From: a virus
Taxonomy: Duplodnaviria > Heunggongvirae > Uroviricota > Caudoviricetes
Reading direction: 5' to 3' (one strand)
IMG/VR virus record: IMGVR_UViG_2695420398_000002
Span: 1-16,314 of that record
DNA: 16,314 bases
The number at the start of each line of letters is the position of its first letter. Positions within the stretch are counted from its first letter, which is position 1. The translations under genes and the position numbers were made by a program. The notes beneath the pieces were generated by a model that saw only the letters and a program-made list of their open reading frames with translations, was not told the DNA's origin and did not search any database. This document shows positions 1 to 15,534 of the stretch, piece after piece.

Positions 1-89
1 GATATCGGGGCACCCGGCAATTTCTGCAATCTGCGAAGCTGGCGATCGGTCAGACTTAAATGCCTGGCAACTTCAGTCTGCGTAGCCAC
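1..89 (-). CDS. Terminase small subunit (Nu1-like), N-terminal part only; gene continues past the window start
   Basis: Minus-strand frame opens just downstream of cosB with a GAGG/AGGAG Shine-Dalgarno and a GTG start at 89; translation (V)ATQTEVARHLSLTDRQLRRLQKLPGAPI looks like the N-terminal HTH of small terminases. Position immediately after cos matches lambda Nu1. Start codon is non-ATG, so uncertain. Confidence 0.4.
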   Translation of the reverse strand, partial: MATQTEVARHLSLTDRQLRRLQKLPGAPI

Positions 90-128
90 TCCTCACCTCG
101 CAAAAACTCTCACCTCACAATTAGCACA

Positions 129-237
129 AAACCGGTCATGTCCGGTTTACATGTCCATTTTTTGCGCATGTCCGGTTCACGGAAAGCCCGTTCTTATATT
201 TTTCATGTAGTTAACTTGCAGAGAAACCGGACATGGT
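129..237. repeat. cosB-like cluster of repeated CATGTCCGGTT elements (two direct copies at 137-147 and 167-177, one inverted at 226-237, plus degenerate copies at 129-140 and 150-158)
   Basis: Repeats read directly from the sequence; they lie between cosN and the Nu1-like start, where lambda has its R3/R2/R1 terminase-binding sites, and the inverted/direct arrangement resembles lambda R3 versus R2/R1. Confidence 0.5.
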
Positions 238-272
238 TCCCGGAAAATTTTCATAAATAGCGAAAACCCGCG

Positions 273-284
273 AGGTCGCCGCCC
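273..284. other. cos: cosN cohesive-end site; flanks 241-300 match lambda left-end and right-end sequence
   Basis: Plus 273-284 AGGTCGCCGCCC is the exact reverse complement of the lambda 12-nt cohesive end GGGCGGCGACCT; plus 241-272 is the complement of the lambda left-end sequence CGCGGGTTTTCGCTATTTATGAAAATTTTCCG and 285-297 matches the lambda right-end GACAGGTTACG (recalled from memory). Confidence 0.75.
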
Positions 285-695
285 CGTAACCTGTCGGATT
301 GCCGGAAAGGACCCGTCAGCCGTTCTGGTCGACTTCGTAATGGGATTTAATAGCTGAACGACAAAAGTCGTGCAACCACGGTTGCACAGACCTGAATACA
401 CGTCCTGTTTCTTCCACCCCCGCACAGGACTGGCGAGCATGAGGGACAAACCCGCGAATCATAAACGCGGTAAAAACCCGGTGTGCATCGTTTTTGATTA
501 TTCCCGCACACTCGCGCAGAGGAGTTCCCCGTCGGGCTACGGTCATGGTTAATGCGGGAATACGGCGACGATACAGCGCATGATGTGTCAGGCCTGAATA
601 CCTTTATCCGTTAAAAGGGATATCAGTTAAGTTATCCCGTGCAGGGTATAAGCCATTATCAAGCCCACCCGTAGATAGGCTTTGTAATGACATCT

Positions 696-1220
696 TCAAT
701 TAATCAGCAGTTCAGGCTGTGTCACCTGCAAAATGTATTCATGCTCGACAGCCAGGACACGCTTCTCTCTCTTCCGTTCGTTCATTAACCGACTGCCGAT
801 CGTACCTTTCAGCTTTGAGCGTGTTTCTTTGATGGCGTAGCGGTGCTGCATTTCTTCGCCAATTGCCATGCGGCGGCTCAGTTGCTCTGCCATCCAGTTG
901 AATGCTGCGATATAGCTCTCCTTGATTGCCGCAGCAGCTTTCCCGGTGAACCCCATCACAACCATGATCCAGCCATCTTTCGTCAGGCTGTACATCGGGC
1001 GAACCTTGCCCTGCTCATCGATATAATCAGCCGACGCAAAATTGCGTTGGCTAAACTCACGCGAGCAATCAGCCTTAACCTGCTCGATTTTCCTGAGAAC
1101 ATCACCGTGTCGCTTGCCGAAGTACTTGGCAATTTTTCTGGATGTGGTAACGACCTCTCCGTTTTTGGCTTGCACCATTTCTCGGAAGTCGAAGGCTGGA
1201 ATAACTGAATGATTATTCAT
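696..1220 (-). CDS. Phage regulatory protein, Rha family
   Basis: Translation contains a motif characteristic of the Phage_pRha domain (TTSRKIAKYFGKRHGDVLRKIE). ATG at 1220 is preceded by AAAGG; the longer ORF to 1256 begins with GTG. Confidence 0.7.
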   Translation of the reverse strand: MNNHSVIPAFDFREMVQAKNGEVVTTSRKIAKYFGKRHGDVLRKIEQVKADCSREFSQRNFASADYIDEQGKVRPMYSLTKDGWIMVVMGFTGKAAAAIKESYIAAFNWMAEQLSRRMAIGEEMQHRYAIKETRSKLKGTIGSRLMNERKREKRVLAVEHEYILQVTQPELLIN

Positions 1221-1363
1221 AGCGTCTTTACCTTTTAGAAAGTGAGCCTGTCTCACAGAAAAGCCGCCCGAGAGAGGTCGCCACCTATAACGGCATTTCT
1301 CAGGCTCGCTTACTGAAAGGCTCTCGTTAATATGCGCGTGAGATGCGCGTTTACTGCGGACAT

Positions 1364-1386
1364 AAAAAAGCCCCGCATCGCGAGGC
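1364..1386 (-). terminator. Rho-independent terminator downstream of Rz
   Basis: On the minus strand GCCTCGCGATGCGGGGC (6-bp GC stem with one G-U pair, 5-nt loop) is followed by TTTTTT. Confidence 0.5.
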
Positions 1387-1418
1387 TCATTAAATTGACT
1401 TTGTGATTTGCAAAAAAA

Positions 1419-1886
1419 TTATTTCAGGCATTGCGTCCTGATGTACTCCTGAAGCGTTCTCAGTGCTGTTTGGTCACGGATAATTCCGTCCCGGATACCG
1501 AGAACGTTTCGTCCAGCAACTGGAGAGAGTTCGACGGTGGCATCATTGCCCATGCCGGAGGCGCTGGAGGTTTCGGCTGAGGATGGCACAGAGCATTTTC
1601 CTTTGACGAGCACCCGACCACCATTATCAAGCTTGCGCCGAAGAGCATCATTTTCAGCTTTCGCATCAGCCAACTCCTTCGTGTATTTAGCATCGAGTAC
1701 ATCAGCAGCACGCTGGCGTTGCTGCATGTCAGTAATGGTGGCGGTCGCCTGCTTCAGCTCACTGACTTTTTTATCACGCTGCTCTTTGTAGGCGATGGCG
1801 TTATCACGGTAATGATTAACAGCCCATGACAGGCAGAGGATGATGCAAATAACCAGAGCGGAGATAATCGCGGTTACCCTGCTCAT
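1419..1886 (-). CDS. Rz: Spanin inner-membrane subunit (i-spanin) Rz
   Basis: N-terminus [16 protein letters not shown]...[10 protein letters not shown] is near-identical to lambda Rz as recalled, with a coiled-coil body; ATG at 1886 overlaps the endolysin stop (ATGA). Confidence 0.85.
1460..1666 (-). CDS. Rz1: Spanin outer-membrane lipoprotein (o-spanin) Rz1, embedded in the +1 frame of Rz
   Basis: [21 protein letters not shown] has a lipobox (VVGC) and is followed by a proline-rich stretch PKPPAPPAW, as in lambda Rz1; the gene lies wholly inside Rz. Confidence 0.75.
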
Positions 1887-2380
1887 TGCTGCCCCCACAA
1901 ACAGACTTCACGCTCAATATCACGACGGGTCATCAGCCCTTTCCATTGCTTACCGCCAGCGTATGTCCAGCGACGTAGCTGGTCACATGCGCCTTTGATA
2001 TCACCCTGGTTTATTTTGCGAAGAAGCGTCGATGTTCTGAAATTACCAGCGCCCACGTTGTAAACGAACGAGTAAAGAGCGCCGCGCGTTGTTTCCGGTA
2101 TATCGACGTTGATGTACGGGTTAATTTGTCTGGCGACCGTGGCAAGGTCTTTATTCAAGAGTGCTTTGCATTCTGCTTCGGTATACGTTTTACCGGGCAT
2201 GATGTCTTTTCCGGTGTGTCCGTGACATACAGTCCATACGCCAACGATATCTTCGTATGGTATGTAGCTGACACCTTCCAGACCATCGTTACCACCTGGA
2301 CCAGTGATGAGCACAGACGCTATGGCAACAGCCCCACCACCAATAGCAGCTGCAACAGCCTTGCGTAATGACGGCGACAT
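1883..2380 (-). CDS. R: SAR (signal-arrest-release) endolysin, phage 21 R21-type lysozyme
   Basis: N-terminal weakly hydrophobic Gly/Ala-rich SAR segment ([21 protein letters not shown]) followed by a lysozyme core; near-identical to phage 21 R as recalled. Its start overlaps the holin stop. Confidence 0.9.
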
Positions 2381-2586
2381 TATTCACCTCTCGCAGCCTT
2401 ACGCTTATCTTCTTTAATCTTGAAATAAAGATTTGTCAGATACGTCAGCAGGCCAAACAGCAGACTTCCCAGCACACCTATTGCCACCCACTGGGACGGA
2501 GAGACTTTGTCCAGCAGCTGCAGTAACCAGTATCCCGTCCCCACCGCTGACGTGGTGTATGACACACCTGTTGTGATTTTTTCCAT
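2380..2586 (-). CDS. S: Pinholin, phage 21 S21-type
   Basis: 68-aa protein with two TM segments and a charged C-terminus ([13 protein letters not shown]), near-identical to S21 as recalled; GGAGA Shine-Dalgarno upstream. Confidence 0.9.
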
Positions 2587-2630
2587 CTGATGTATGTCTC
2601 CGTCACCGCCGACAGAAAATGAAAGTAAAG

Positions 2631-2667
2631 AAAAACAAAAAAGCCGCCAGTGTCACCCACTGACGGC
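2631..2667 (-). terminator. Strong Rho-independent terminator about 45 nt upstream of the holin start (tR'-like)
   Basis: Minus strand GCCGTCAGTG-GGTGA-CACTGGCGGC (10-bp stem including one G-U pair) followed by TTTTTTGTTTTT. Confidence 0.6.
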
Positions 2668-2841
2668 CAACACCGGGAGCCGTGATTATGGCATTCAGGC
2701 TCTGCTAAAAATGCCAGATAACATTCCGGCCTCCCCCGATTCAGGTTATAAATGACACAATATCTTGACAACATCCGTCACTGTCTGTCAGAAAATGTAC
2801 TGCCATATAGAAGCAACATGTGAAGTACATCTATCCTTTTG

Positions 2842-2884
2842 AGCCAGCACCTCTCCACCGAAAGTCAGTGCTGGCTGTTTTTTT
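2842..2884 (+). terminator. Plus-strand hairpin plus T7 run (terminator-like), copy A of a tandem module
   Basis: AGCCAGCAC ... GTGCTGGCT 9-bp inverted repeat with a 17-nt loop, followed by GTTTTTTT; about 45 nt downstream of a TTGACA -35 element at 2765-2770. Confidence 0.4.
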
Positions 2885-2991
2885 CCTTAATAAAGCATCT
2901 GTAACTGAAACAATCCGCATATTGATAATATATTGACAGGCATCATTGCTGTCTGTGAAAAATAAGTCTCTACAAACATATAAGGCCTTTT

Positions 2992-3033
2992 AGCCAGCGT
3001 CTTCTTTTTCAGGTCAGTCGCTGGCTTTTTTTA
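2992..3033 (+). terminator. Plus-strand hairpin plus T7 run (terminator-like), copy B of a tandem module
   Basis: AGCCAGCG ... CGCTGGCT 8-bp inverted repeat with a 19-nt loop, followed by TTTTTTT; preceded by TTGACA at 2933-2938. The T-run abuts the nanS stop codon. Confidence 0.4.
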
Positions 3034-4884
3034 TTATGCTGCCGGTGCATTTATCTCCAGCACCAGACTTTCTATCTCAACGCCATACGCTGCATTTTTT
3101 GTAACATCCGTCAGCGTCAGCGCATTCAGTCCCAGTGTCAGACTGTCTTTTATAACCTGGAATGCCGGGCCAGCCACTCCATTCAGTTTCGGAGTAACCG
3201 TGGCACTGCCGGCGGTGAACACCAGCTCCAGCGTCTGCCAGTCGTTACCGTAATCGCCGAACTCCCCCAGCTTCGTGTTTCCGGCTTTCCTGTGATGCAT
3301 CAGATTCACTCTGCCGTCAGTGGTCTGAGTGAAGTACGACATCAGGAACGGATTACCGGTACCCGTCATCGCCACACCATCAGGAACGGGAGCATCCGTA
3401 TACAGATAAATCCCCAGCCCGAACTGATTGTTGGTCAGTGCGCCTGACAGGCGGAACTTACAGGTCAGTCTGCCGCCCTGTGTCAGCAGGGTAATTGCGT
3501 CATCCACCGGATGCGTCAGGGACCAGGTTTTATTGCTCTGCTTGGTGATCTTAAATACACCATCTGACAACTGAATTCCGCCATCCTTAATGCTCCAGCC
3601 CTGCGCAGCAGCCTCTCCGGCTGCCGGCAGCAGGGAGATTGTGCGAACGGACGTATCTGCAGACGGACCCGATGGCGTGTTGCCGCCGGGCGAGGGTTTG
3701 ATTTCCGGTGCCTTACCACTGATGAAGGCTGAGGTGCGCCCGGCTGCGTTCAGAATAGCGGTTGCCAGACGATCCGGAATAATGCTCCTGCGCGCCCATG
3801 AACTGAAATGTGTCGGGCGGTTTGATGATACCTGGTTTCCATTCGTTCTCGATGCCGCACCGTAATATCCTGATGCCGGAATATCCGGATCTTCTGCCGG
3901 CGCGTTAGTGGCGGTATTGACGCCGTTACCGTCTGTCATGAAGGGCACAAAATAAACGCCCTCACTCTCCCTGTTTTTATACCCGCCGTACACGGTGTCG
4001 TACTGGGTAGCGTATGTATTTTTCCAGTAATACGTCGTGTCACCACAAATCCACGGCACATCTACAGCGCTGCCACCATGGCACTGCGCGTTAAACACGG
4101 AGAGGTCAGCACGAAACTGTGTCAGCATGGCTGTAAACAGCGCAGGTTGCTGTGCGTGGGTGGCGGCACTCATGTCAAACTCACCCTGCATCCAGCAGAC
4201 GGCCAGCAGAACGTTTTTGGGATTTTTCTGCAATGCCGCTTTTGTGCGGGAAATCAGATCCTGATATAACGGCTTGCCCACCCCCCAGCGTGCCGAATCC
4301 TGACTGGCCCCCGTGGACTCGCTGAATGTCCCCTCCGCGCCCTGGGTAAATGCCGAACCACCACGACAGCATGGTACCAGCAGGATCCCCGCGTTATTCG
4401 GGATATACGGGAGCAGTTTTTTGGCAATATGTAAACCCTGGCCGACACAGCCGTACTGCCCTTTGCTCAGGTCAGCCCTCGGATGATTCAGCGTACTCAT
4501 ATCCTGCACATCATGCAGACAGTGGTCAGCCGGAATAATATCGTTATATCTGCAGGCAGCCCCGCCCGGCGTCACTGTACTGCGGCGCGCCAGCTGTTTA
4601 ATGCGCGGATCCGGAGCATCGTATGAATCCGGCAGCGGAAGCCCTTCACCGTAAGCCATGGCATTGGACTGCCCGGCCAGTACGATGACGTAGTACCAAT
4701 CCGGCTCAGATGAAGGGCCGACCTGTGGCTCTCCTTCAATAGCCACCGCCTGCATCAGTGTGTACGGCGTAATGGCAACCGGTCCGCCGTATGGCTGCCA
4801 GCCCTCTTTCAGTTTGTGTGTCAGCTTTTCCGCAAGGTCTGACGGCGACGCCGCCCTGACAACATCGTAATGTTTAATCGACAT
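3034..4884 (-). CDS. nanS: Prophage sialate O-acetylesterase, NanS-p-like (DUF1737-like N-terminus plus SASA/SGNH esterase domain)
   Basis: 616-aa ORF with a GQSN esterase motif (YVIVLAGQSNAMAYGEG) and strong GGGAGAAA Shine-Dalgarno; sits between Q and the lysis genes, as NanS-p does in Stx and related prophages. Confidence 0.75.
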   Translation of the reverse strand: MSIKHYDVVRAASPSDLAEKLTHKLKEGWQPYGGPVAITPYTLMQAVAIEGEPQVGPSSEPDWYYVIVLAGQSNAMAYGEGLPLPDSYDAPDPRIKQLARRSTVTPGGAACRYNDIIPADHCLHDVQDMSTLNHPRADLSKGQYGCVGQGLHIAKKLLPYIPNNAGILLVPCCRGGSAFTQGAEGTFSESTGASQDSARWGVGKPLYQDLISRTKAALQKNPKNVLLAVCWMQGEFDMSAATHAQQPALFTAMLTQFRADLSVFNAQCHGGSAVDVPWICGDTTYYWKNTYATQYDTVYGGYKNRESEGVYFVPFMTDGNGVNTATNAPAEDPDIPASGYYGAASRTNGNQVSSNRPTHFSSWARRSIIPDRLATAILNAAGRTSAFISGKAPEIKPSPGGNTPSGPSADTSVRTISLLPAAGEAAAQGWSIKDGGIQLSDGVFKITKQSNKTWSLTHPVDDAITLLTQGGRLTCKFRLSGALTNNQFGLGIYLYTDAPVPDGVAMTGTGNPFLMSYFTQTTDGRVNLMHHRKAGNTKLGEFGDYGNDWQTLELVFTAGSATVTPKLNGVAGPAFQVIKDSLTLGLNALTLTDVTKNAAYGVEIESLVLEINAPAA

Positions 4885-4970
4885 CGAATTTCTCCCGTGT
4901 ACAGGAACAGAGTTAAAAAGCCGGAACCGGAATCAAATCACAGGATGACCATCTGCCAGTGGCAGGTCAT

Positions 4971-4997
4971 AAAAAAAAGGCCGCGCCATGCGCAGCC
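4971..4997 (-). terminator. Rho-independent terminator about 90 nt upstream of nanS
   Basis: Minus strand GGCTGCGC-ATG-GCGCGGCC (8-bp GC-rich stem, 3-nt loop) followed by TTTTTTTT. Confidence 0.55.
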
Positions 4998-5183
4998 AGA
5001 ACTCACAAGGAAAATGATAGAAGGAAATAACATTAGTGATGTACGCATGGCGCCTCCCGCTAAGTTCTGCAATGATCAAACAGAACTCGCTACGTGCCCT
5101 TAAAACTCGATCATTTAGCCCCTCCAAGGAGGATTCACCATGCGGTTGGTTTTTTAATAAACAGTAAACAAAAAAGTCAAGAA

Positions 5184-5294
5184 TTATTCATTCTGTTCTT
5201 TCATCATCGGCCACAGCAATACCACAATGCCGCAGACCAGAGCGCCATCAGTCAGTACCAACATTATCCTGCTGGTGAAATCCATCATCACCAT
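5184..5294 (-). CDS. Candidate small hydrophobic protein (36 aa, MVMMDFTSRIMLVLTDGALVCGIVVLLWPMMKEQNE)
   Basis: ATG-initiated ORF found by manual translation; single predicted TM helix; no clear Shine-Dalgarno. Could be a chance ORF. Confidence 0.2.
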   Translation of the reverse strand: MVMMDFTSRIMLVLTDGALVCGIVVLLWPMMKEQNE

Positions 5295-5427
5295 CACTAA
5301 AAGCAGGATCACAACAGCAAGCAGACACAGTTTATAAAACAATGTTCAGAAAACGCATTCAGCATGCCTAAGGTTCTATTCCTACGAATAGCCAACTTGC
5401 AACTTAAAATATTATTTATGCAGCCAA

Positions 5428-6186
5428 TTAAATTCTGGTCCTTACAATATCAACCTGAAGATTCTTATCTTGTGCTGATTGATAAATCACAAACCTTTTA
5501 CTACCTGCATTGAAAGAAGTAGACAAAACCAGACAATTATCATAACGAGCAAGAACATAATACCAACCATCATTATAATTAATCATTTCATATTCTTTCT
5601 TAAACTGTGGTTTGTAATATCCTGTCAGAAATGAAAAAAGCCAGAAATATGCCACAAAAGCAATCATCACAATCTCAAAAAAATGTTTTTTTATAAATGG
5701 CTTATCATAGAAGCATGATACCGATAAAAATCGCCCATAAGATCTTATCGAAATTGTAACCGCCAGCGCAATCGCTGCTGACAGTAGCAAAAGAGGTACC
5801 TGAATCTTCTGTCTCAATATAGAAAACTCAATAATTGCCGGCACAAACAATAATTCCACAGCAAAATAAAGGCGAAATACATTTAGCTCTTGCATAGAAT
5901 GTTTTCTTTTCACTGCGAAAAAGAATACAACACCAATACCCCAACCGATAAGAAATATAGCAATGACGATAACTGCAAAAAATAAACTTCTGGCAACATC
6001 ATCAACACCTGCACCTACAATCCACCATGGGAAGCCGTAGTAAAAAGAAGTACCCCATCCATAGAAATAAGCACTCCCCCATCCAAGGCATCCCATGTAG
6101 GCAATAAAAAGTGAAGAACTCCTGAGCAGCGCACCATCCTTCATAACCACCCCAATACAAGATGATAACATTGGCTTACAACTCAT
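5428..6186 (-). CDS. Hypothetical polytopic inner-membrane protein (252 aa), AT-rich moron immediately downstream of Q/pR'
   Basis: Long ATG-initiated ORF with 4-5 strongly hydrophobic segments and a roughly 70-aa hydrophilic C-terminal tail; visibly AT-rich relative to flanking lambda-like genes; no family recognised. Confidence 0.7.
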   Translation of the reverse strand: MSCKPMLSSCIGVVMKDGALLRSSSLFIAYMGCLGWGSAYFYGWGTSFYYGFPWWIVGAGVDDVARSLFFAVIVIAIFLIGWGIGVVFFFAVKRKHSMQELNVFRLYFAVELLFVPAIIEFSILRQKIQVPLLLLSAAIALAVTISIRSYGRFLSVSCFYDKPFIKKHFFEIVMIAFVAYFWLFSFLTGYYKPQFKKEYEMINYNDGWYYVLARYDNCLVLSTSFNAGSKRFVIYQSAQDKNLQVDIVRTRI

Positions 6187-6344
6187 AACAAAAGCAATTC
6201 AATGCCGTCAAGAGGTTACAGGCTAAAAAAACTCTATTACATTGCAGTCAGCATGTTTACTACACAAATACAATTCAGAGCATAAAAACTACTCGGCGGC
6301 AGGTTATTGAGACTCATCAATGACATGTAAAAAACGCCCATTAT

Positions 6345-6381
6345 TGGTGTCAAGTTTCCCCAAAGTTATTCAAAAAGTCAA
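6345..6381 (-). promoter_or_regulatory. Late promoter pR' with overlapping qut region
   Basis: Minus strand TTGACTTTTTGAATAACTTTGGGGAAACTTGAC aligns with lambda pR' (TTGACTTATTGAATAAAATTGGGTAAATTTGAC as recalled): -35 TTGACT, 17-nt spacer, degenerate -10 GAAACT; it starts about 40 nt after the Q stop. Confidence 0.55.
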
Positions 6382-6423
6382 TATTATGCCGTTAATATGT
6401 TGCCATCCGTGGCAATCATGGCG

Positions 6424-7047
6424 CTAACGTGTGATCGCATTCAAAATGTTGTCTGCGATTGACTCTTCCTTGTGGCATTGCACAACCAGAGCGTCATACA
6501 GCGGCTTAACAGTGCGTGACCAGGTGGGTTGGGTAAGGTTTGGGATTAGCATCGTCACAGCGCGATATGCGGCGCTTGCTGGCATTCTTGAATAACCGAC
6601 GCCTTTACATCTTCCGCACTCTTTCTCAGCAACTATCCCCCACTGCTCTGTTTTGGCTATATCAACCGCACGGCCTGTACCGTGGCAATCTCTGCATCTT
6701 GCGCCCGGCGTAGCGGCACTACGGCAATAATCCGCATAAGCGAATGTTGCGAGCACTTGCAGTACCTTTGCCTTAGTATTTCCTTCAAGCTTTGCCACGC
6801 CACGGTATTTCCCCGATACCTTGTGTGCAAATTGCATCAGATAGTTGATAGCCTTTTGTTTGTCGTTCTGGCTGAGTTCGTGCTTACCACAGAATACAGC
6901 CATTCCGAATCCGGCTTGTGATTGCGCCATCCCCATAGCAGCCATCACATCAGTACCGGAAAGAGAGTCAGAAGCCGTGGCCCGTGGTGAGTCGCTCATC
7001 ATCGGGCTTTTTGGCGAATGAAATTTAGCTACGCTTTCGAGTCTCAT
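6424..7047 (-). CDS. Q: Late-gene antiterminator Q (lambda-type)
   Basis: 207 aa, essentially identical to lambda Q as recalled, including the CRDCHGTGR...CGRCKGVG zinc-binding region. Confidence 0.95.
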
Positions 7048-7709
7048 GCGCCTTCTCCCTGTACCTGAATCAATGTGAGATTTCCGCAGAACACTGCCCC
7101 AGTATCGATATACATCTGGTTGGCAAATTTGAGTGGTTTCACTGCTGGCGTATGACCAAAGATAAACGTGTCCGCGCCTTTAATTTCTTTAACGATCCCG
7201 TCTTGTGAGTTGCTGATTCGTTCGCGGTTCCAGATTACCTGCTGATGATCAACTGGCTTTCCAAATTCGTATTCGTCACAAGGATAATCGGCGTGGCAGA
7301 TGACATATTTTTTACCTTTGCTCACCAGTTCGATGATTAACGGAAGTTCTTCTGCTTTATGGGCAAGAGCTTTAGCCAGAATTTCTTTGTCGTAATCGAG
7401 ATTAAAGAACCAGCCACCGCCATTAAGCAGCCAGTGATTAACGTTTCCACGCTCTGATAAGCCATCAATCATCATTTGCTCATGGTTTCCACGTACAGCT
7501 CTGAACCAGGGGAATGTGATTAATTCCAGGCATTCAACGTTCTCTGCACCACGATCAACCAAATCGCCCACCGAGATAAGCAGGTCTTTTTTGTTGTCGA
7601 ATCCAATCGTATCCAGTTTGTTCATCAGGTTCGTGTAGCATCCGTGCAGATCGCCAACTACCCAAATATTTCGGTATTTGCTGCCATCAATTCTTTCGTA
7701 GATATTCAT
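7044..7709 (-). CDS. ninI: Ser/Thr protein phosphatase (lambda PPase, NinI/orf221)
   Basis: 221 aa with GDLHG, GDLVDRG and GNHE metallophosphatase motifs; near-identical to lambda orf221 as recalled. Confidence 0.95.
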
Positions 7710-8320
7710 GCAGCCTCACTTCTGCTGTTTCGCAGTTTTTTAAGTTTCTGTTGATACTCCGCCTTGATGGTCCTGCACTCTTCGACAGTCCAGCGATGGC
7801 GGTTATGGTTTGATTCGATTTCGTCTACTGCTTCCTGCCCGATGCGGCTAATCAGTTCGACGCGATACGGAACGAGATTTCCGCTTTTGTGCTGGTTGCA
7901 CACCACGCATTGCTTGTGAATATTGCGTTCATCAAATCGGAGTTGAGGTGCCGCAGCAGTTGTCCGGTAATGTCCGGCATCCCACTGAGCAGACGTGAGC
8001 GTTCCGCACGAGATACATGGTAAGTCGCGGTCTCTTTCTCTGATGAAGGCGTTTACGGCTTGTTGGGCTTGTTTAATCCAGTAACTGCGGGGCTTTAAGG
8101 CGAGTTTTCGAATCTTAAGTTTATCTTTCTGTTTCTGCTCCTCTCGTCGTCGTTTCTTCTCTGCTGCTTTTTCCGCTTTTTCGCGTTCTTTACTTCGTCG
8201 TTCGAGTGCTATCTTGGTTCCACACTCTGGAGAGCACCACCACTGATTAGCGAATGCAGGGTGAAACCATTCCCGACATTCATCGTTTTTACATCGTCTT
8301 CGCGCTGGTTTAGCCATCAT
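7706..8320 (-). CDS. ninG: NinG/Rap recombination-promoting nuclease
   Basis: 204 aa ([22 protein letters not shown]...) near-identical to lambda NinG as recalled; overlaps the phosphatase start. Confidence 0.9.
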
Positions 8321-8522
8321 CTTCTTCCTCGTGCATCGAGCTATTCGAATCGCTCATCAGCTCTGCACAGCAGTGCTCACACACGTGAACTTCCAGCACA
8401 TGCAGCTTCTGACCGCAATTAGCGCACGTTAAAGCCCGCTCGACGCTTTCTTGTTCGTAACTTCGATTTGGGTCAATCACCTTGTATTCCTCGCACGATG
8501 TCTTAGCCACCGGATATCCCAC
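8310..8522 (-). CDS. ninF: NinF-like zinc-ribbon protein (start uncertain; longest ORF begins with GTG)
   Basis: C-terminal part [34 protein letters not shown]...HEEEDDG matches lambda NinF as recalled; the N-terminal extension differs and no in-frame ATG is available. Confidence 0.65.
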
Positions 8523-8659
8523 AGGTGAGCCGTGTAGTTGAAGGTTTTTACGTCAGATTCTTTTGGGATTGGCTTGCGTTTATTTCTGGAGCGTTTCGTT
8601 GGAAGGTATTTGCAGTTTTCGCAGATTATGTCGGTGATGCTTCGTCGCTGTCGTCTCAT
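8477..8659 (-). CDS. ninE: NinE
   Basis: From the internal [37 protein letters not shown]... matches lambda NinE as recalled; its start overlaps the methyltransferase stop (ATGA). Confidence 0.8.
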
Positions 8660-9183
8660 GCAGCCCTCCTGACGCCCTGCCCGATCGCCATCAATGCCGC
8701 TTTGGATACGGTAGTAAACATCCGTCGAGGACTGATGAACGGTCGCCAAATCAGCAGCATGGAGCCTTTGCTGTTTCCCTTCTTCTCCAGCCCTGTCGAT
8801 GGTTCGATAAAATTAATCCGTCCATCAGTGATAATACGAACTTCGTCAACACTCTCCAGAGCCTTGCTGAACCATCCGACAGACATATCCTCTGGCACAA
8901 GCATCACTACCGTCTGTCGCTGTTGTATACACTGCTCAGCGGCTTTTTCCACCCACGGCCTGATATTGCTGTACGGTGGGTTATTCCAGATTGCACCGTG
9001 GCTTACCCACTCAGAATTGAGCGCGTCGTCGTCCTCAGTTAGCCAGTGAGCGCACAGAGCGTTTTTGTCGCTCGCTGCCGAATCCAGCCAGAATCCAAAC
9101 TCAATATCCAGTGCATCAAAAAGCCAAAGCGGCGTTTGCCAGCAGTCCTTGTCGTGTGCTGGCGTATTTGATTTGATAGTCAT
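8656..9183 (-). CDS. Phage DNA N6-adenine methyltransferase (Dam-like, NPPY motif)
   Basis: WQTP...LD.EF...LDSAAS...WNNPPYS motif set typical of phage Dam-family MTases; occupies the ninC/ninD position; start overlaps the ninB stop (ATGA). Confidence 0.8.
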
Positions 9184-9620
9184 GCAGCCCGATCTCCCCA
9201 TCGCGCTTTCCATTCGAGAGCCAGTCGCGCTTCGTCTGACCACTTAACGCCACGCTCTGTACCGAATGCCTGTATAAGCTCTAATAGCTCCGCAAATTCG
9301 CTTACACGCATCCTGCTGGTTGACTGGCCTATTACCACAAAGCCATTCCCGGCAAGGTTAGGAACAACATCCTGCTGCTTTAATGCTGCGGTAAACACAC
9401 ACTTCCAGCTTTCTGCATCCAGCCAGCGACCATGCCATTCAACCTGACGAGAGACGTCACCTAAGCAGGCCCATAGCTTCCTGTTTTGGTCTAAGCTGCG
9501 GTTGCGTTCCTGAATGGTTACTACGATTGGTTTGGTTGGGTCTGGAAGGATTTGCTGTACTGCGTGAATAGCGTTTTGCTGATGTGCCGGAGATCGAATT
9601 TCAAAGGTTAGTTTTTTCAT
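9180..9620 (-). CDS. ninB: NinB (recombination protein)
   Basis: MKKLTFEIRSPAHQQNAIHAVQQILPDPTKPIVV... near-identical to lambda NinB as recalled; GGGAGAGGGAAG Shine-Dalgarno before the ATG at 9620. Confidence 0.9.
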   Translation of the reverse strand: MKKLTFEIRSPAHQQNAIHAVQQILPDPTKPIVVTIQERNRSLDQNRKLWACLGDVSRQVEWHGRWLDAESWKCVFTAALKQQDVVPNLAGNGFVVIGQSTSRMRVSEFAELLELIQAFGTERGVKWSDEARLALEWKARWGDRAA

Positions 9621-9636
9621 GACTTCCCTCTCCCCC

Positions 9637-9668
9637 AAATAAAAAGGCCTGCGATTACCTGCAGGCCT
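9637..9668 (-). terminator. tR2-like Rho-independent terminator between ren and ninB
   Basis: Minus strand AGGCCTGC-N8-GCAGGCCT (8-bp stem) followed by TTTTTATTT; same location as lambda tR2. Confidence 0.65.
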
Positions 9669-9693
9669 GTGATTAGCTCAGTGATGTAGATGG

Positions 9694-9984
9694 TCATCTT
9701 TTAACTCCATATACCGCCAATATCCGTTTCATCGTGGCACTCTGGCGACACTCCTTAAAAATCAGGTTCGTGCTCATCTTTCCTTCCCGTTCTTCCTTGG
9801 TAGCAAACCGGTAATACACCGTTCGCCAGACCTTACCTTCGATAACCAGAAGACCTGCCCGTGCCATTTTAGCCGCGGCCTGATTTATGCTGGTTACTGT
9901 TGCGCCTGTTAGCGCGGCAACGTCCGGCGCACAGAAGCTATTATGCGTCCCCAGGTAATGAATAATTGCCTCTTTGCCCGTCAT
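9694..9984 (-). CDS. ren: Ren (Rex-exclusion resistance protein)
   Basis: 96 aa, near-identical to lambda Ren as recalled. Confidence 0.9.
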   Translation of the reverse strand: MTGKEAIIHYLGTHNSFCAPDVAALTGATVTSINQAAAKMARAGLLVIEGKVWRTVYYRFATKEEREGKMSTNLIFKECRQSATMKRILAVYGVKR

Positions 9985-10682
9985 ACACTTGCTCCTTTCA
10001 GTCCGAACTTAGCTTTAATTTCTGCGATCTTCGCCAGCGCCTGAACACGATTTAGAGGTCTGCCGCCCATGACAGGAAGTTGTTTTATTGGTTCAGGTAT
10101 CGTCTCACCACGGTTAATTCGCGCTGTCATACAGGTCAGTTCATCGGCAGCCTTGCGTCGTAATTCCGCGTCAGTCAGCGCATTGGCCCGCATGTTCTGG
10201 TACAGGTTGGTAACCAGCCAGTAGTGCGCGTTCGATTTCCACGGATAAGACTCTGCATCCGGATACAGGCCTCGCTTCCGGCAATACTCGTAAACCATAT
10301 CAACCAGCTCGCTGACGTTTGGCAGTCCGGCGATAACGGATGCTTCTTCCCGGCACCATGCAACAAACTGCCCGGGTGATGGCAGAAATGGTCGATTCTG
10401 CCGACGGGCTACGCGCATTCCTGCGTTAACCTGTTCCATTGTGGTGATCCCGTTTTCCCGGAAAGCCAGAACCCACTGGCGGCGGATTTCGTTCAGTTCG
10501 TTCTGGTCACGGTTAGCCAGGCTCGCCGGGAAAGTTGCCAGTAACTGGCTGAACACACCGTTGATGATCTGCGCTACCTGCTGTACCTGAGGCTTTTCGT
10601 CGTACTGTTCCGGCATGTTGTTGGCGATCCGACGCATCTGCTCACGGTCAAAGTTAACCATCTGTGCGGCGATGTTTTTCAT
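9981..10682 (-). CDS. P: Replication protein P (DnaB helicase loader)
   Basis: 233 aa, near-identical to lambda P as recalled; overlaps the O stop. Confidence 0.95.
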   Translation of the reverse strand: MKNIAAQMVNFDREQMRRIANNMPEQYDEKPQVQQVAQIINGVFSQLLATFPASLANRDQNELNEIRRQWVLAFRENGITTMEQVNAGMRVARRQNRPFLPSPGQFVAWCREEASVIAGLPNVSELVDMVYEYCRKRGLYPDAESYPWKSNAHYWLVTNLYQNMRANALTDAELRRKAADELTCMTARINRGETIPEPIKQLPVMGGRPLNRVQALAKIAEIKAKFGLKGASV

Positions 10683-11578
10683 AAATCCACCCCGTAAATC
10701 CAGTCAGTGTTTGTCAGGTCGAGTTTTGGTTTGCAGGCTGTCACGCCTGCCTGTTGCTTGTTACGGTTGATTTCGAGCTGGGTCCACTTGTCGCGGAGTT
10801 TGGCCGGGCTCAGCACGTTACCGGACCAGAAGTTGTCCTGGCATGCCCAGCGGAACAGTACACACATGTCGCGATGGTTACGTCCGTCACGTTCACGCAT
10901 CAGGCGGATATCGTTAGCCCACCCTGCAAAATTCGGTTTTCTGGCTGATGGCGCGATGGTCTTCACCATGTCAAACATCCACTCTGCGGCGGTCAGATCT
11001 TCTGCTGTCCCCCACCTGCTGCCGCTCTGAATTGCAGCATCTGGTTTCTCCACAGAAAGATCGTTTTCTGGCTGGTCAGAGGATTCGCCTGAATTCTCTG
11101 ACGAATAATCTTTTCTTTTTTCTTTTGTAATAGTGTCTTTTGTGTCCCCCTGTTTTGAGGGATAGCAATCCCTCAATTTGAGGGATGTTTTATCCCTCGT
11201 TTTAGGGGATTTTCCCTCGTTTTGAGGGATACACCATTCTGAGATGTTTTTATTTGGTCCAAACATGCCGCCTTGCTGCTTGATAATATTCATTCTGACG
11301 AGTTCTAACTTGGCTTCATTGCACCGTTTGACGGGTAACTTTGTAATCTCGCTAAGTTGAGAATCGGTGATTCTGTCCATTGGTTTATTCCACCCATAGG
11401 TTTTACGCAGAATGGCAAGCAGCACTTTAAACTGTCGCTTGGTCAGATCTGCGCCTGAATAAGCCTCAAGCAGCATATTTGATAGTCTGACGTAACCATC
11501 ATCGAGATCTGCCACATTACGCTCCTGTTCGGCAAAGTTACCTCTGCCGAAGTTGAGTATTTTTGCTATATTTGTCAT
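10679..11578 (-). CDS. O: Replication initiator O
   Basis: 299 aa, lambda O-like; contains the ori iterons internally; AGGAG Shine-Dalgarno upstream. Confidence 0.95.
   Translation of the reverse strand: MTNIAKILNFGRGNFAEQERNVADLDDGYVRLSNMLLEAYSGADLTKRQFKVLLAILRKTYGWNKPMDRITDSQLSEITKLPVKRCNEAKLELVRMNIIKQQGGMFGPNKNISEWCIPQNEGKSPKTRDKTSLKLRDCYPSKQGDTKDTITKEKRKDYSSENSGESSDQPENDLSVEKPDAAIQSGSRWGTAEDLTAAEWMFDMVKTIAPSARKPNFAGWANDIRLMRERDGRNHRDMCVLFRWACQDNFWSGNVLSPAKLRDKWTQLEINRNKQQAGVTACKPKLDLTNTDWIYGVDL
11105..11229. repeat. ori: Lambda-type origin: four about 17-bp iterons (TCCCTC-N5-GAGGGA family) at 11145-11162, 11169-11185, 11193-11209 and 11213-11229, plus adjacent AT-rich region 11105-11144
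   Basis: Four tandem near-palindromic repeats with 20-24 bp spacing inside the O gene, followed in the O sense by an A/T-rich tract, as in ori-lambda. Confidence 0.85.
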
Positions 11579-11610
11579 AATGACTCCTGTGGATTGATCC
11601 AGTAATTCCC

Positions 11611-11907
11611 TCAGAATTGCATATCAATTTGCTTAAAATCCTCGGTGGCAGCCGGGGATTTTTTCTTTGTGATTTCATCAAGCGCATACTTAAAAGCCCT
11701 GCTAATCGGACTGATGTCTGATGCCATTCCGAAAGCACACAAGACCGAAGCAATAAACCGCCAGTCCGTTCTGCTTATCTTCGATTCATGACAGCCAATC
11801 ATCTTTGCCAGACCACGCTGGGTAAGCGTTGACAGGTTGATGAGTAAATCTGTTTCTGCGCGATCAACGTCACGCTGTGATAGTTTGCTGTAACTTGTTT
11901 GTTCCAT
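11611..11907 (-). CDS. cII: CII-like transcriptional activator
   Basis: 98 aa; an HTH segment (KISRTDW) and C-terminus KKKSPAATEDFKQIDMQF parallel lambda CII (KKRPAATERSEQIQMEF as recalled); lies between cro/nutR and O. Confidence 0.7.
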   Translation of the reverse strand: MEQTSYSKLSQRDVDRAETDLLINLSTLTQRGLAKMIGCHESKISRTDWRFIASVLCAFGMASDISPISRAFKYALDEITKKKSPAATEDFKQIDMQF

Positions 11908-11944
11908 TTCTTAAGATTTCCAATAGTGAATAGTTAGTTGAAAG

Positions 11945-11963
11945 GTATGCGTGGAAACGCATA
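11945..11963 (-). terminator. Possible tR1-like hairpin between nutR and cII
   Basis: Minus strand ATGCGT-TTCC-ACGCAT (6-bp stem) followed by ACCTTTC; weak U-tract, which would fit a partial or Rho-assisted terminator. Confidence 0.3.
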
Positions 11964-11990
11964 TGGCCTTAGTTGGTCAGATATCTTGGG

Positions 11991-12038
11991 GCTCGCTTTT
12001 CAGCGACGTAGGACGAATGTCCGTTGTTACAAAGAGCG
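11991..12038 (-). promoter_or_regulatory. nutR: nutR: boxA (CGCTCTTTG) plus boxB hairpin (TCGCT-GAAA-AGCGA) with an intervening small hairpin
   Basis: Minus strand CGCTCTTTGTAACAACGGACATTCGTCCTACGTCGCTGAAAAGCGAGC directly downstream of cro; the same architecture recurs at nutL. Confidence 0.5.
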
Positions 12039-12048
12039 GCTCCGCTTA

Positions 12049-12264
12049 TTAAGCGGCTTTGTGCTCCGGCGGGAACACGTCATCAAGACTTACTTTTGCG
12101 CCTAACTTGTTTAGACACGCAACAAGAGCACGGCATGTTTTAAGGTCTGGGAAGCGACGACCAGATTCCCAATGTCCGATAGCTCCCTGTGTGCATCCAA
12201 CTGCCTTAGCAAGTGTTGTTTGAGAGATATTCAGTGACTCTCGATATTTTCGTAGGTTGCTCAT
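12049..12264 (-). CDS. cro: Cro-like repressor (XRE-family HTH)
   Basis: 71 aa from the ATG at 12264 with GGAGGG Shine-Dalgarno; [23 protein letters not shown] resembles the cI HTH; divergent from cI. Confidence 0.8.
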
Positions 12265-12375
12265 ATGCCCTCCATAGTAACCATGAAGAAAAAAATACAA
12301 TATGTACTTTTTGAATGCAAGCAAAAATACACATTGTGCATGGATGGTTGCAATACAGAGCGTAATAATAAGGAC
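12265..12375. promoter_or_regulatory. Right operator/promoter region (OR; pR towards cro, pRM towards cI)
   Basis: Operator-like dyads TAC-N5-GTA at 12295-12307 (aTACaatatGTAC) and 12327-12339 (aTACacattGTGC); candidate pR on the minus strand with -35 TTGCTT (12319-12324) and -10 TATTGT (12297-12302). Confidence 0.65.
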
Positions 12376-13035
12376 ATGAAAATGAAATGGTATGAACTGG
12401 CTAGATCCAGAATGAAAGAGCTCGGCATAACTCAAGAGAAGTTAGCCGAAGAGCTAGGTATGACGCAGGGTGGGATTGGACACTGGTTGCGCGGATCTCG
12501 TCATCCATCTCTTAGTGATATTGGTGTGGTGTTTAAATACCTTGGTATTGATAACATATCATTCAACCACGACGGGACATTTTCACCTGTTGGCGAATAC
12601 TCATCGGCCCCAGTTAAAAAACAATATGAGTACCCTGTTTTTTCTCATGTTCAGGCTGGGATGTTCTCTCCAGAACTCAGAACCTTTACCAAAGGCGATG
12701 CGGAGAGATTGGTAAGCACAACCAAAAAAGCCAGTGACTCTGCATTCTGGCTTGAGGTTGAAGGTAACTCAATGACCGCCCCAACAGGTTCCAAACCTAG
12801 TTTTCCTGACGGGATGTTAATTCTGGTTGACCCAGAGCAAGCTGTTGAGCTCGGCGATTTCTGCATAGCCAGACTTGGTGGTGATGAATTTACCTTCAAG
12901 AAACTGATCAGGGATAGCGGTCAGGTGTTTCTACAGCCACTAAATCCACAATACCCAATGATCCCATGCAATGAGAGTTGTTCCGTTGTGGGGAAAGTTA
13001 TCGCTAGTCAGTGGCCTGAAGAGACGTTTGGGTGA
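12376..13035 (+). CDS. cI: CI prophage repressor (N-terminal HTH plus C-terminal LexA-like S24 autopeptidase domain)
   Basis: Start chosen at the ATG at 12376 with AAGGA Shine-Dalgarno; [23 protein letters not shown]; C-terminal domain has the GNSM serine motif and a downstream Lys (FTFKKL). Not lambda cI, so a different immunity type. Confidence 0.85.
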
Positions 13036-13115
13036 TGGATGGCAAACCTCATAATGAATAACTTTAGCGAGTTGGCGACAAACTATCCACATTATATTAA
13101 TATAAGGGAAAATCG

Positions 13116-13958
13116 ATGAGTAAGTTCGGGTGTGATATGAGTAGGCAAATTACTGTTTTCGATGACACATCACAGTTAACATTTGATGATTTCGCTAGAG
13201 AAAACGGTGTTACCTATTGGTTTGCATCTGATTTAGCGATGATGCTTGGATATAATGGCATGGATCAGATATTGAAAGCCATTAACAAAGCTACATCTGT
13301 ATGTGTGAGCCTCGATATCCCTGTATACGATAACTTCATCCAGATGCCTTCAGAAAATGCGAAAAATGACTTTAAATTAACTCGTTTCGCTTGTTATCTG
13401 ATTGTAATGAATGGTGACATCAGCAATCAAAAAGTTGCAAATGCACAAGCTTATTTTGCTGGGCTCGCAGCAGAAATACACACTACATATCATAACCATG
13501 ACGCAGTTAATCGAGTTTATTTGCGTGGCGAGATTACATCTAGAGAGAAAACTCTCAGTCATGTAGCCCATAAACACGGAGTAGTCGACTATGGTCTATT
13601 TCAAAATGCGGGCTACCGTGGGATGTACAATATGAATCTCTCACAGTTGAAAGCTCGAAAAGGCCTAACTAAAAAAGATGGAACGATGCTTGACTTCATG
13701 GGAAGCGAAGAGCTCGCGGCCAATATATTCAGAATTACACAGACAGAAGCAAGAATCAGAAACCAGAACCTGAAGGGACAGTCTCAACTAGAGAATGCTG
13801 CTGAGACCGTAGGGAGATCTGTTCGCAATGTAATGATTTCTAACACTGGAACAGCCCCTGAAAACATAAAACTTTCCCAAGAAAAAATTCAGAAAGTTAG
13901 AAGCAGCATTAAGAAAACTCATAAAGCCCTAGCAAAGCACGACCAAAAAAAACCATAA
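13116..13958 (+). CDS. DinD-like protein (DNA-damage-inducible protein D family) at the rexAB position
   Basis: 280 aa with AAGGGAAAA Shine-Dalgarno; motifs FACYLIVMNGD and KGLTKKDGTMLDFMGSEELAANIFRITQTE resemble E. coli DinD as recalled from memory (unverified). Confidence 0.6.
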   Translation: MSKFGCDMSRQITVFDDTSQLTFDDFARENGVTYWFASDLAMMLGYNGMDQILKAINKATSVCVSLDIPVYDNFIQMPSENAKNDFKLTRFACYLIVMNGDISNQKVANAQAYFAGLAAEIHTTYHNHDAVNRVYLRGEITSREKTLSHVAHKHGVVDYGLFQNAGYRGMYNMNLSQLKARKGLTKKDGTMLDFMGSEELAANIFRITQTEARIRNQNLKGQSQLENAAETVGRSVRNVMISNTGTAPENIKLSQEKIQKVRSSIKKTHKALAKHDQKKP

Positions 13959-13966
13959 ATGCATAC

Positions 13967-13992
13967 CCCGGCCTCAGCGCCGGGTTTTCTTT
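13967..13992 (+). terminator. Rho-independent terminator after the DinD-like gene
   Basis: CCCGGC-CTCAGC-GCCGGG (6-bp GC stem) followed by TTTTCTTT, 9 nt after the stop codon. Confidence 0.65.
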
Positions 13993-14132
13993 GCCTCACG
14001 CCCCCACCTAAAGACACATAACCAAATGTATTTATTGAAAAATAAATAGATACAACTCACTAAACCACGCAATTCTGATCTCTCCTTACATCGCCGAGGC
14101 GATACACCCACGCTAAAAAACAACACTATTAA

Positions 14133-14206
14133 ATACAAAGTGTTATAAAAAATCACCCTATTTTAGAACAAATCGTATTGACCCAATAAAGTACATATCG
14201 TACTAT
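14133..14206 (+). promoter_or_regulatory. pL promoter with left operators (OL)
   Basis: -35 TTGACC (14178-14183), 17-nt spacer, -10 TACTAT (14201-14206); operator dyads GTACatatcGTAC (14191-14203, overlapping the promoter) and aTACaaagtGTTA (14133-14145) match the OR motif. Confidence 0.65.
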
Positions 14207-14252
14207 TTAACCGTCAGCAGGACGCTGGAAGCCAAACGGAACAGACTGGCAG

Positions 14253-14298
14253 GCTCTTTAAACAACGTCGAACTCTCGACTACGTGGCTGAAAAGCCA
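14253..14298 (+). promoter_or_regulatory. nutL: nutL: boxA (GCTCTTTA) plus boxB hairpin (TGGCT-GAAA-AGCCA)
   Basis: GGCTCTTTAAACAACGTCGAACTCTCGACTACGTGGCTGAAAAGCCA between pL and N; parallels nutR in sequence and spacing. Confidence 0.55.
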
Positions 14299-14396
14299 GA
14301 TCACCCAACCACATGAGCTGTGGGATGCAATGCCGAAGCAACCGTCTCAGGAGGAGCTTCGAGATTGCATCACCAAAGTTTATTCGGGAGGAATCT

Positions 14397-14669
14397 ATGT
14401 CCAGAAAAACAGAATTTAAAGGCACCTCAGCTTCTCGTCGTAGAGCTCGTCGCGCAAACCTGCAAAGTCAGGAGGCGATTAGCTCCGACAAGCTACACAG
14501 ACCAACCCCCTCTCGAGTGGTCTTGCAATGCAAGCGCAAACCAGCAATGAGAGCAGAAGTAATAACACTGACAACGTTGACCAGAAAATATGAAGGCTCA
14601 ACTTGTCTTCCGAACGTAGCTCTTTACGCGGCAGGCTACCGGAAATCCAAACAACTGACAGCAAAATGA
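14397..14669 (+). CDS. N: Antitermination protein N (arginine-rich motif); reading frame ends prematurely relative to the conserved C-terminus, which is encoded in another frame at 14666-14719
   Basis: ATG at 14397 with GGGAGG Shine-Dalgarno; ARM SASRRRARRA near the N-terminus; RKPAMRAE parallels lambda RKPKSRVE. The 17 codons MTCVGRQKMKLGSKPLI matching the lambda N C-terminus (ITCSGRQKIKGKSIPLI as recalled) lie in a different frame. Confidence 0.7.
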   Translation: MSRKTEFKGTSASRRRARRANLQSQEAISSDKLHRPTPSRVVLQCKRKPAMRAEVITLTTLTRKYEGSTCLPNVALYAAGYRKSKQLTAK

Positions 14670-15516: not shown

Positions 15517-15534
15517 CTATGAGGATATGAATAG

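Follow-up and report, generated by a model that had tools for sequence, protein, structure and literature searches.

A candidate lysogenic-conversion gene of the STM1630/TfpB family in the Q-proximal slot of a lambdoid prophage

Introduction

The classical morons of lambdoid phages, such as bor and lom of lambda or the Shiga toxin (stx) genes, are non-essential cargo of the late region that deviates in base composition and brings its own expression signals, and their products are outer-membrane proteins, lipoproteins or secreted toxins. Here we analyse a gene that shares these properties, its expression signals being predicted ones, but whose product appears to be a polytopic inner-membrane protein. 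It lies on the minus strand of a 16,314-nucleotide stretch of viral DNA (positions 1 to 16,314 of IMG/VR record IMGVR_UViG_2695420398_000002; hereafter the window), behind the gene for the late antiterminator Q and the late promoter pR', in the slot that is also that of stx and of the genes for type II heat-labile enterotoxin (LT-II) and pertussis-like toxin.

The gene and its family are already known, the identical sequence being annotated in phage 434 (gene 68, CPT_434_68, 'putative membrane protein') and in Escherichia coli O157:H7 (WP_001299184.1), with 100% identity of the proteins over 238 amino acids. Phage 434 is 99.2% identical to window positions 2701-6288 and has a like cassette, with a DUF3927 gene, an STnc100-like RNA element with its terminator and a gene for a SASA-domain esterase. 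However, in both 434 and O157:H7 the gene follows a Q82-type antiterminator gene and an intact tR' terminator, whereas the window has lambda Q and pR' followed by a broken tR'. A more distant relative, STM1630 of Salmonella Typhimurium, is bound by H-NS, is expressed in macrophages and in medium that induces Salmonella pathogenicity island 2 (SPI-2), and is co-regulated with SPI-2 genes. Its deletion alters intramacrophage replication, which rises in a mutant of strain 4/74, and attenuation in both calves and chicks had been reported from an earlier screen. STM1630 has the family, the architecture and an AT-rich composition in common with the gene in the window, but it is chromosomal, located in the steB-sseJ interval with no prophage around it, has a distal promoter of another kind and lacks a DUF3927 partner.

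We lean, by a modest degree, towards the view that the gene in the window is a lysogenic-conversion moron, encoding an inner-membrane protein of five helices with its N-terminus inside and its C-terminus outside, whose conserved periplasmic parts, a loop and a beta-barrel, bind some partner in the cell envelope.

Results

The protein falls into a family that is catalogued but uncharacterised, being known as PF27470 (TfpB), as the STM1630 family and as PHROG 1521. A precomputed PF27470 tag is attached to the identical protein and to all 103 homologues found in a collection of 5.8 billion proteins, and gene tables of relatives give this family the name TfpB. The current RefSeq/PGAP product name for the identical gene is 'STM1630 family protein', and PHROG 1521 (function category: unknown) matches residues 31-252 of the open reading frame (ORF) at E 2e-154. 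These assignments overturn an earlier statement, made from the letters of the DNA alone (the sequence-only reading), that the ORF could not be placed in any family. Older releases of Pfam-A and NCBIfam (r20) returned no significant match for the membrane protein; weak matches to DUF4501 and CrgA were dismissed as noise. An exhaustive hidden Markov model search of 1.84 billion representative proteins yielded 72 family matches, and the family is restricted to Enterobacterales, Pasteurellaceae and Neisseriaceae, where all members are annotated as hypothetical. Its members share an N-terminal aromatic motif, about five transmembrane helices and a small C-terminal beta domain, in alignments that extend down to about 12-15% identity. 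Homology to STM1630 spans the full length (46% identity over 94-100% of the query, E 1e-70, to protein P0075), and P0075 is identified as STM1630 by a published knock-out primer that encodes NSSMLLAYLGGLGWG and by its 717-bp gene beside sseJ (PMC6785131). A literature search on PF27470, DUF3927, TfpB and TciB found nothing usable.

The gene is widespread. At an identity of at least 99% it is present in 679 complete E. coli replicons, including those of serotypes O157:H7, O145, O121, O111, O26 and O103, and some family member is detectable at the DNA level in 1197 of 5426 complete E. coli genomes (~22%). Of 50,697 phage records, only 3 encode a relative, the phages being 434 and 2B8. The arrangement with lambda Q is common in E. 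coli: the 25 best E. coli matches to window positions 5100-6450 are full-length at 99.9%, and 273 records reach at least 99%. Pairwise dN/dS values of 0.05-0.18 show purifying selection, and the gene is both real and conserved.

The ORF of 252 codons that had been reported at 5428..6186 does exist, but the translated form is likely shorter. Judged by homology, the true start is almost certainly the ATG at 6144, giving a product of 238 amino acids, because nearly all full-length homologues are 236-238 amino acids long and align from Met15 of the longer ORF, and because the same 717 nucleotides are called in the most recent PGAP annotation of the O157:H7 gene, which is identical. The upstream ATG at 6186 falls within a conserved -10-like element. 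The corrected start exposes a Shine-Dalgarno sequence, GGGGTGG at 6153-6147, with GAGG or GGGG at the equal distance in diverged copies, so the sequence-only reading was wrong in finding no convincing ribosome-binding site.

The base composition of the gene sets it apart from its surroundings, as had been noticed from the start. Its GC content is about 0.364, and that at third codon positions (GC3) about 0.305-0.308, against 0.471 GC for the whole window and 0.44-0.56 GC with 0.47-0.60 GC3 for its neighbours Q, ninI, ninG and nanS. The family gene is more AT-rich than its own flanks in every host examined. Alignment shows that it is absent from lambda, and the slot varies in content among the matches, with or without nanS, LpxR or toxin genes. 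Since the gene is absent from lambda, and since 434B, a derivative of phage 434 without the entire Q-to-lysis segment, is viable after this segment was replaced (PMC9119081), it appears to be dispensable for lytic growth. Of the hallmarks of a moron, the gene shows apparent dispensability, variable presence among related phages and a deviating base composition; a promoter-like element conserved in position and a downstream terminator are predicted, and might allow expression from the repressed prophage. The proposal that it occupies a late-operon moron slot is supported: the gene is foreign-looking cargo between Q and the lysis genes, and relatives sit in late regions of the Stx type and beside LT-II genes.

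The contexts of relatives range from prophages to virulence plasmids and chromosomes. In 434 and O157:H7, the Q82-type Q gene and intact tR' are followed by the gene, DUF3927, the STnc100-like element and then an esterase or a holin gene, with LpxR encoded just upstream of Q. A relative of 68% identity lies in a late region of the Stx-phage type, in the order Q, methylase, tRNAs, STnc100, gene, LpxR, (PmrD), nanS-p, DUF1378, DUF826 and holin. Another, of 58% identity, lies in a lambdoid late region in the order Q, LT-II A and B, Q fragment, tRNAs, gene with terminator, pertussis-like toxin S2S3 and S1, holins and endolysin. In this region (locus L035, 2655-7091, and locus L036, with Enterotoxin_a and LT-IIB domains, the Q fragment and two tRNAs), the family gene has a strong terminator of its own with a GGCCCGC stem and is flanked on both sides by AB5 toxin operons. 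Relatives of 59% identity (1285 assembly blocks) are found on plasmids of enterotoxigenic E. coli (ETEC), flanked by insertion sequences, near estB and divergent from eltAB, the operon of type I heat-labile enterotoxin (LT-I). On these plasmids (L011-L015, ~3987-6714), the gene is ~0.87 kb from eltA and ~3 kb from estB (STb), and the arrangement may be a relic tying LT-I to a prophage late region. Relatives of 57% identity occur on 106 Shigella pINV plasmids, including pWR100, where the gene lies between virA and spa40 (L028, 7001-7717), and on an E. coli island next to iroBC and bor (L024). The pINV copy is annotated as hypothetical, and S. dysenteriae CP006737 labels it 'TfpB protein'. The copies of Salmonella and Citrobacter rodentium are chromosomal and syntenic, beside adhC and a gene for a methyl-accepting chemotaxis protein, the Salmonella copy standing between steB and sseJ. 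Haemophilus ducreyi, Avibacterium, Neisseria animaloris and Mannheimia have single chromosomal genes amid housekeeping genes. In the ~15 contexts examined, we found neither an adjoining pilin gene nor a known defence gene.

Two further observations concern these neighbourhoods. The lipid A deacylase gene lpxR adjoins the family gene or is at most two genes away in 434, O157:H7, the Stx-type prophage and C. rodentium (L002 6421-7380, L021 5972-6919, L030 8092-9051 and L034 3863-4823); this linkage is recurrent, with PmrD accompanying lpxR in the Stx-type prophage and a pseudogene in C. rodentium. In Mangrovibacter phragmitis (L018, 6001-7348), a distant member lies beside an invertase-like serine recombinase of 185 amino acids (Resolvase and HTH_7 domains) and a fragment of a phage integrase, an arrangement that resembles the setting of Moraxella tfpB in an invertible segment.

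An AlphaFold2 model built on 43 diverse sequences, which replaced one built on 21 close homologues with a mean predicted local distance difference test score (pLDDT) of 59, reached a pLDDT of 82.4 and a predicted template modelling score of 0.75. It shows helices at residues 6-36, 47-79, 84-111, 116-137 and 155-181 and a five-strand beta domain, forming a small beta-barrel, at 184-235. The four to five hydrophobic helices and soluble C-terminal tail described earlier are borne out in that the hydrophobic segments are seen, with the tail modelled as a beta domain. The distribution of lysine and arginine over the 43 members (loop 1, -1.4; loop 2, +2.8; loop 4, +2.5) predicts a topology with the N-terminus in the cytoplasm and the C-terminus outside. 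This would put both the aromatic loop YYGFPWW and the beta-barrel at the C-terminus in the periplasm. These are also where conservation is concentrated, namely in the GWGSAYFYGWG-x-S-x-YYGFPWW segment with its loop, and in the end of the fifth transmembrane helix with the beta domain. Only G175, A15, A25, Y26, G37, P39 and Y195 are invariant or nearly so across the family, and the family alignment holds no conserved polar residue fit for catalysis, so that a binding or scaffolding role is probable. Comparison with solved structures and with predicted viral structures found nothing resembling the model. The profile and structure searches that had been proposed as a check thus located the family, but not a structural relative within those two sets.

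In the window, which is a lambdoid prophage with its late genes on the minus strand, the order of genes is cI-like repressor, cII, O, P, ren, NinB, methylase, NinF, NinG, NinI and Q, followed by the slot with the membrane protein gene, the NanS-p-type esterase, endolysin, spanin and a Rha-like gene. The placement between a lambda-type late promoter and nanS is therefore correct, with Q and pR' upstream and the esterase gene as the downstream border of the slot. The features of the slot are collected in Table 1.

Table 1. Features in and around the slot between Q and nanS-p (window positions)
Feature	Position	Strand	Basis and remarks
Lambda-type antiterminator Q	6424..7047	-	Pfam Antiterm, E 4e-58; 202/207 residues identical to lambda Q
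Late promoter pR' (TTGACT-17-GAAACT) and qut-like region	6353..6381	-	Alignment with lambda NC_001416
Degenerate remnant of phi82-type tR'	6284..6305	-	Alignment and folding; intact in phage 434
Candidate sigma-70 promoter of the gene	6182..6211	-	-35 TTGACG 6211-6206, 15 nt, TGT 6190-6188, TATGAG 6187-6182
Overlapping alternative promoter (TTGTTA-18-TATCAT)	6191-6162	-	Prediction
In-frame 5' extension of the 252-aa ORF	6145..6186	-	Probably untranslated; holds the 5' untranslated region, Shine-Dalgarno sequence and part of the -10-like element
STM1630/TfpB-family inner-membrane protein (predicted), coding sequence	5428..6144	-	Homologue lengths and alignment, PGAP, PF27470, PHROG 1521, AlphaFold2, dN/dS
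DUF3927 'TciB-like' small membrane protein, 52 aa	5184..5342	-	PF13064, E 3e-14; PHROG 1470; PGAP
STnc100-like small RNA element	4968..5173	-	Rfam RF02076, 37.5 bits (gathering score 47), E 1e-5, full model length
NanS-p-type sialate O-acetylesterase, further cargo gene	3034..4884	-	DUF1737, SASA and DUF6645 domains; 99.2% identical to the 434 segment

Two sources of transcription can be proposed for the gene. The first is pR', with its -35 at 6381-6376 and its -10 at 6358-6353. The lambda Q/pR' module meets 434-like DNA inside the tR' terminator, at a recombination joint, and the remnant lacks 4 nucleotides of the stem and T-run relative to 434, folding at -3.9 kcal/mol (z +0.5) as against -13.3 kcal/mol (z -3.65) for the 434 copy. 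On the evidence of alignment and folding, tR' is dead in this window. A search between pR' and the gene (6140-6350) found no intrinsic terminator or structured RNA, and therefore the first working terminator after pR' is expected at 4997-4969, ~1.4 kb downstream. This intrinsic terminator (stem 4997-4979, T-run to ~4969; -16 kcal/mol, z -2.8) had already been recognised at 4971-4997, and it can now be added that it forms the 3' end of the STnc100-like element.

The second source is the candidate sigma-70 promoter of the gene. The pattern TTGAC[GT]-N15-TG[TC]-(TATGAG/TATGTA/TATTTG/AATGTA) is kept in register in five diverged lineages with unrelated upstream flanks, these being the window, L006, L011 (ETEC plasmid), L021 (Stx-type prophage) and L024 (iro island). 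For the plasmid copy L011 and the island copy L024, the stretch that BLAST aligns with the window ends at positions 6215 and 6223, just upstream of the TTGACG hexamer at 6211-6206. An extended -10 promoter is thus predicted, from these alignments, to travel with the gene. As for the expectation of strong Q-driven expression on induction, Q and pR' are indeed present, but Q as the only driver is not supported in view of the promoter-like element and the dead tR'.

Downstream of the gene, the supposed hydrophobic peptide ORF of 36 codons (5184-5294) is in fact the 52-codon DUF3927 gene. It accompanies the family gene in the cassette of the 434/O157 type only, and the copies of the ETEC plasmids, of Salmonella and of the Stx-type region have no such neighbour; because the partner is missing from most other contexts, an obligatory pairing of the two was rejected. 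Orthologous STnc100 elements score 98 bits at L006 6944-7160, in a cassette of 83% identity, and 81 bits at L021 4488-4664, in the Stx-type late region, where the element stands upstream of the TfpB-family gene. In the window, a site resembling lambda pR' (TTGACT-17-TTAAAA, 5180-5152) overlaps the 5' end of the STnc100-like element, which may be a vestigial module of late promoter, leader and terminator or a small RNA from a 3' untranslated region. In phage 434, an ORF of 62 codons annotated as 'putative membrane protein' (CPT_434_70) overlaps the element.

Discussion

What the gene does for its carrier is suggested by its company. Because the family has chromosomal members outside phages, because several copies adjoin virulence genes and because STM1630 is expressed in the manner of SPI-2 genes, the gene appears to serve the bacterium in its host. 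For the same reasons, namely stable non-phage members, virulence-linked copies and the STM1630 data, a role in phage lysis or structure is disfavoured. The function is probably neither lytic nor structural nor enzymatic. The scenario that we lean towards is that the gene, its DUF3927 mini-protein partner and the STnc100-like RNA with its terminator form a self-contained AT-rich cargo unit between Q/pR' and the nanS/lysis genes. The gene would be dispensable for phage growth and would benefit the lysogen, in which it would be transcribed from its own extended -10 promoter. In the lambda-Q lineage, extra transcription would come from pR' by read-through, since the intervening tR' is dead, and after induction Q-modified polymerase would over-express the gene. 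The protein would then bind or scaffold in the envelope, probably altering some property of the lysogen's surface or of its interaction with the host.

Several points weigh against this scenario. The adjacency to toxin genes may simply mean that the slot is a hot-spot for cargo. The E. coli and phage protein is known from sequence only, all experiments concerning Salmonella STM1630, and the phenotypes of STM1630 are modest: growth is unimpaired, and strain D23580 shows no effect. A motility phenotype of STM1630 comes from a screen and should not be relied on, because a later study with clean deletions ascribes some of the screen effects to polarity. The positive-inside rule is the sole basis of the topology call. 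The -10 of the candidate promoter does not end in the customary T, and in this region comparable matches are as frequent as chance predicts. Finally, the pR' -10 is weaker here (GAAACT), and Rho or H-NS could silence the read-through.

It is possible, although in our judgement unlikely, that the protein instead acts in superinfection exclusion or abortive infection, as a membrane protein that blocks incoming phage DNA or kills infected cells. The small polytopic inner-membrane proteins SieA and SieB of P22, Imm of T4 and RexB of lambda are likewise phage proteins expressed in lysogens, and a prophage membrane protein in the moron slot, probably expressed in the lysogen, would fit their company. 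Moreover, the cassette partner DUF3927 carries the PHROG label 'TciB-like inhibition of cell division or resistance to colicin', and a further candidate defence gene lies in the rex slot of the same prophage. However, no similarity to SieA/SieB, Imm or RexB was detected in sequence, profile or fold, PADLOC returned no family (0) for either the membrane protein or DUF3927, and the model resembles no solved structure and no predicted viral one. The DUF3927 partner is not conserved alongside the gene, and the family, unlike those proteins, has stable chromosomal members outside phages: its genes are long-term residents of sites that are neither phage nor defence island in Pasteurellaceae, Neisseriaceae, Salmonella and Citrobacter, while other members are on virulence plasmids and the Salmonella member is co-regulated with SPI-2. 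Superinfection exclusion, abortive infection and lysis modulation were the functions suggested by the sequence-only reading, and with no PADLOC match, no structural relative and chromosomal non-phage members, none of them has gained positive evidence.

A slightly less probable scenario is that the family is a common, hitherto unrecognised envelope factor of enteric virulence loci, which with its periplasmic loop and barrel works alongside adjoining cargo that is assembled in the periplasm or belongs to the outer membrane, namely AB5 toxins (LT-I, LT-II, pertussis-like and Stx-slot), LpxR or type III secretion system (T3SS) islands. It might aid the assembly or release of such cargo or remodel the envelope in the host, and it would be produced constitutively in the lambda-Q lineage. 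Constitutive production is proposed because the gene is downstream of pR' and ahead of the first working terminator, so that a 1.4-kb mRNA would replace the short pR' leader. We regard as a little more doubtful again the proposal that the protein helps co-located virulence factors of the periplasm or outer membrane, such as AB5 toxins and LpxR, by acting in their assembly, retention or release or in linked remodelling of the envelope. Relatives are repeatedly adjacent to LT-I genes, stand between the LT-II and pertussis-like operons and take the stx position in a late region of the Stx type; LpxR is encoded adjacent or nearby in 434, O157:H7, the P0019-type prophage and C. rodentium; and the best-conserved parts of the protein are expected on the periplasmic side. 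Yet the window, 434 and O157:H7 copies have no toxin gene alongside, and those of Pasteurellaceae and Neisseriaceae have neither toxin nor LpxR neighbours. The gene is also divergent relative to eltAB, and insertion at one common hot-spot may be all that brings these genes together.

An accessory role in type IV pili, at which the Pfam name TfpB could be taken to hint, is one that we consider very improbable. The name itself, its use in GenBank for one Shigella copy ('TfpB protein'), the presence of members in piliated Neisseriaceae and in Pasteurellaceae, and the invertase-like serine recombinase gene that adjoins the Mangrovibacter copy all speak for such a role. The family's namesake, tfpB of Moraxella bovis and M. 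lacunata, is presumably an ORF in the Piv-invertible pilin segment, but we know of no function for Moraxella TfpB, which counts against reading a pilus function into the name. It shares with the window protein the Pfam family assignment, by tag and name alone, and profile searches for family members returned no Moraxella protein. Nor does any pilin gene adjoin the ~15 copies whose contexts were examined. The accessory proteins TfpY, TfpZ and FimB are likewise membrane-anchored, from piliated bacteria and, in part, 'Tfp'-named, but they are of another architecture, with three N-terminal helices and mixed and antiparallel beta-sheets, and their genes are next to pilin genes (PMC11841053). An identity with TfpY/FimB was rejected in view of five transmembrane helices, a five-strand barrel and the lack of pilin neighbours.

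That the gene encodes a late lysis modulator, an antiholin-like or timing factor made only from the Q-antiterminated transcript, is an idea to which we give hardly any credence: it would suit a late-operon membrane protein just upstream of holin, endolysin and spanin genes, but most lambdoid phages, lambda included, lack the gene, plasmid and chromosomal copies are far from lysis genes, the gene comes with its own promoter-like element and terminator, and a PHROG search placed the membrane protein in no lysis family, whether holin, antiholin or spanin.

A lysogenic-conversion moron whose product acts on the periplasmic side of the inner membrane thus remains the reading that we prefer. One orphan family, under purifying selection, is found beside LT-I, LT-II and pertussis-like toxins, in the Stx slot, in the Shigella T3SS region, beside salmochelin genes and beside SPI-2 effectors. 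The gene is common to many major enteric pathogens and already catalogued. What remains of interest is its function, its recurrent company of AB5 toxin and other virulence genes, and the broken tR' of this lineage, which provides a natural test of pR' read-through as a route to lysogenic conversion.

Other features of the window

A tRNA scan of the window found none. At the site expected for a class II holin, an ORF of 98 codons (2478-2774, minus strand) has no Pfam or PHROG match, and the 68-aa pinholin of phage 434 maps to about window positions 2380-2586; the 98-codon ORF is probably a spurious overlapping frame. On the plus strand, directly downstream of the cI-like repressor gene and in the position of rexAB of lambda, an ORF of 280 codons (13116-13958) encodes a protein with a Bro-N domain (E 6e-8); among the candidate defence families of PADLOC it matches PDC-S13 (E 2e-86). 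The ORF is likely to be a defence gene of the prophage that shares a transcript with the repressor gene. Also on the plus strand, right after the N antiterminator gene, lies a gene (14671-15354) whose product contains nucleotide modification associated domain 5 (Nmad5; E 6.5e-70); it is followed by DUF2528 and Kil.

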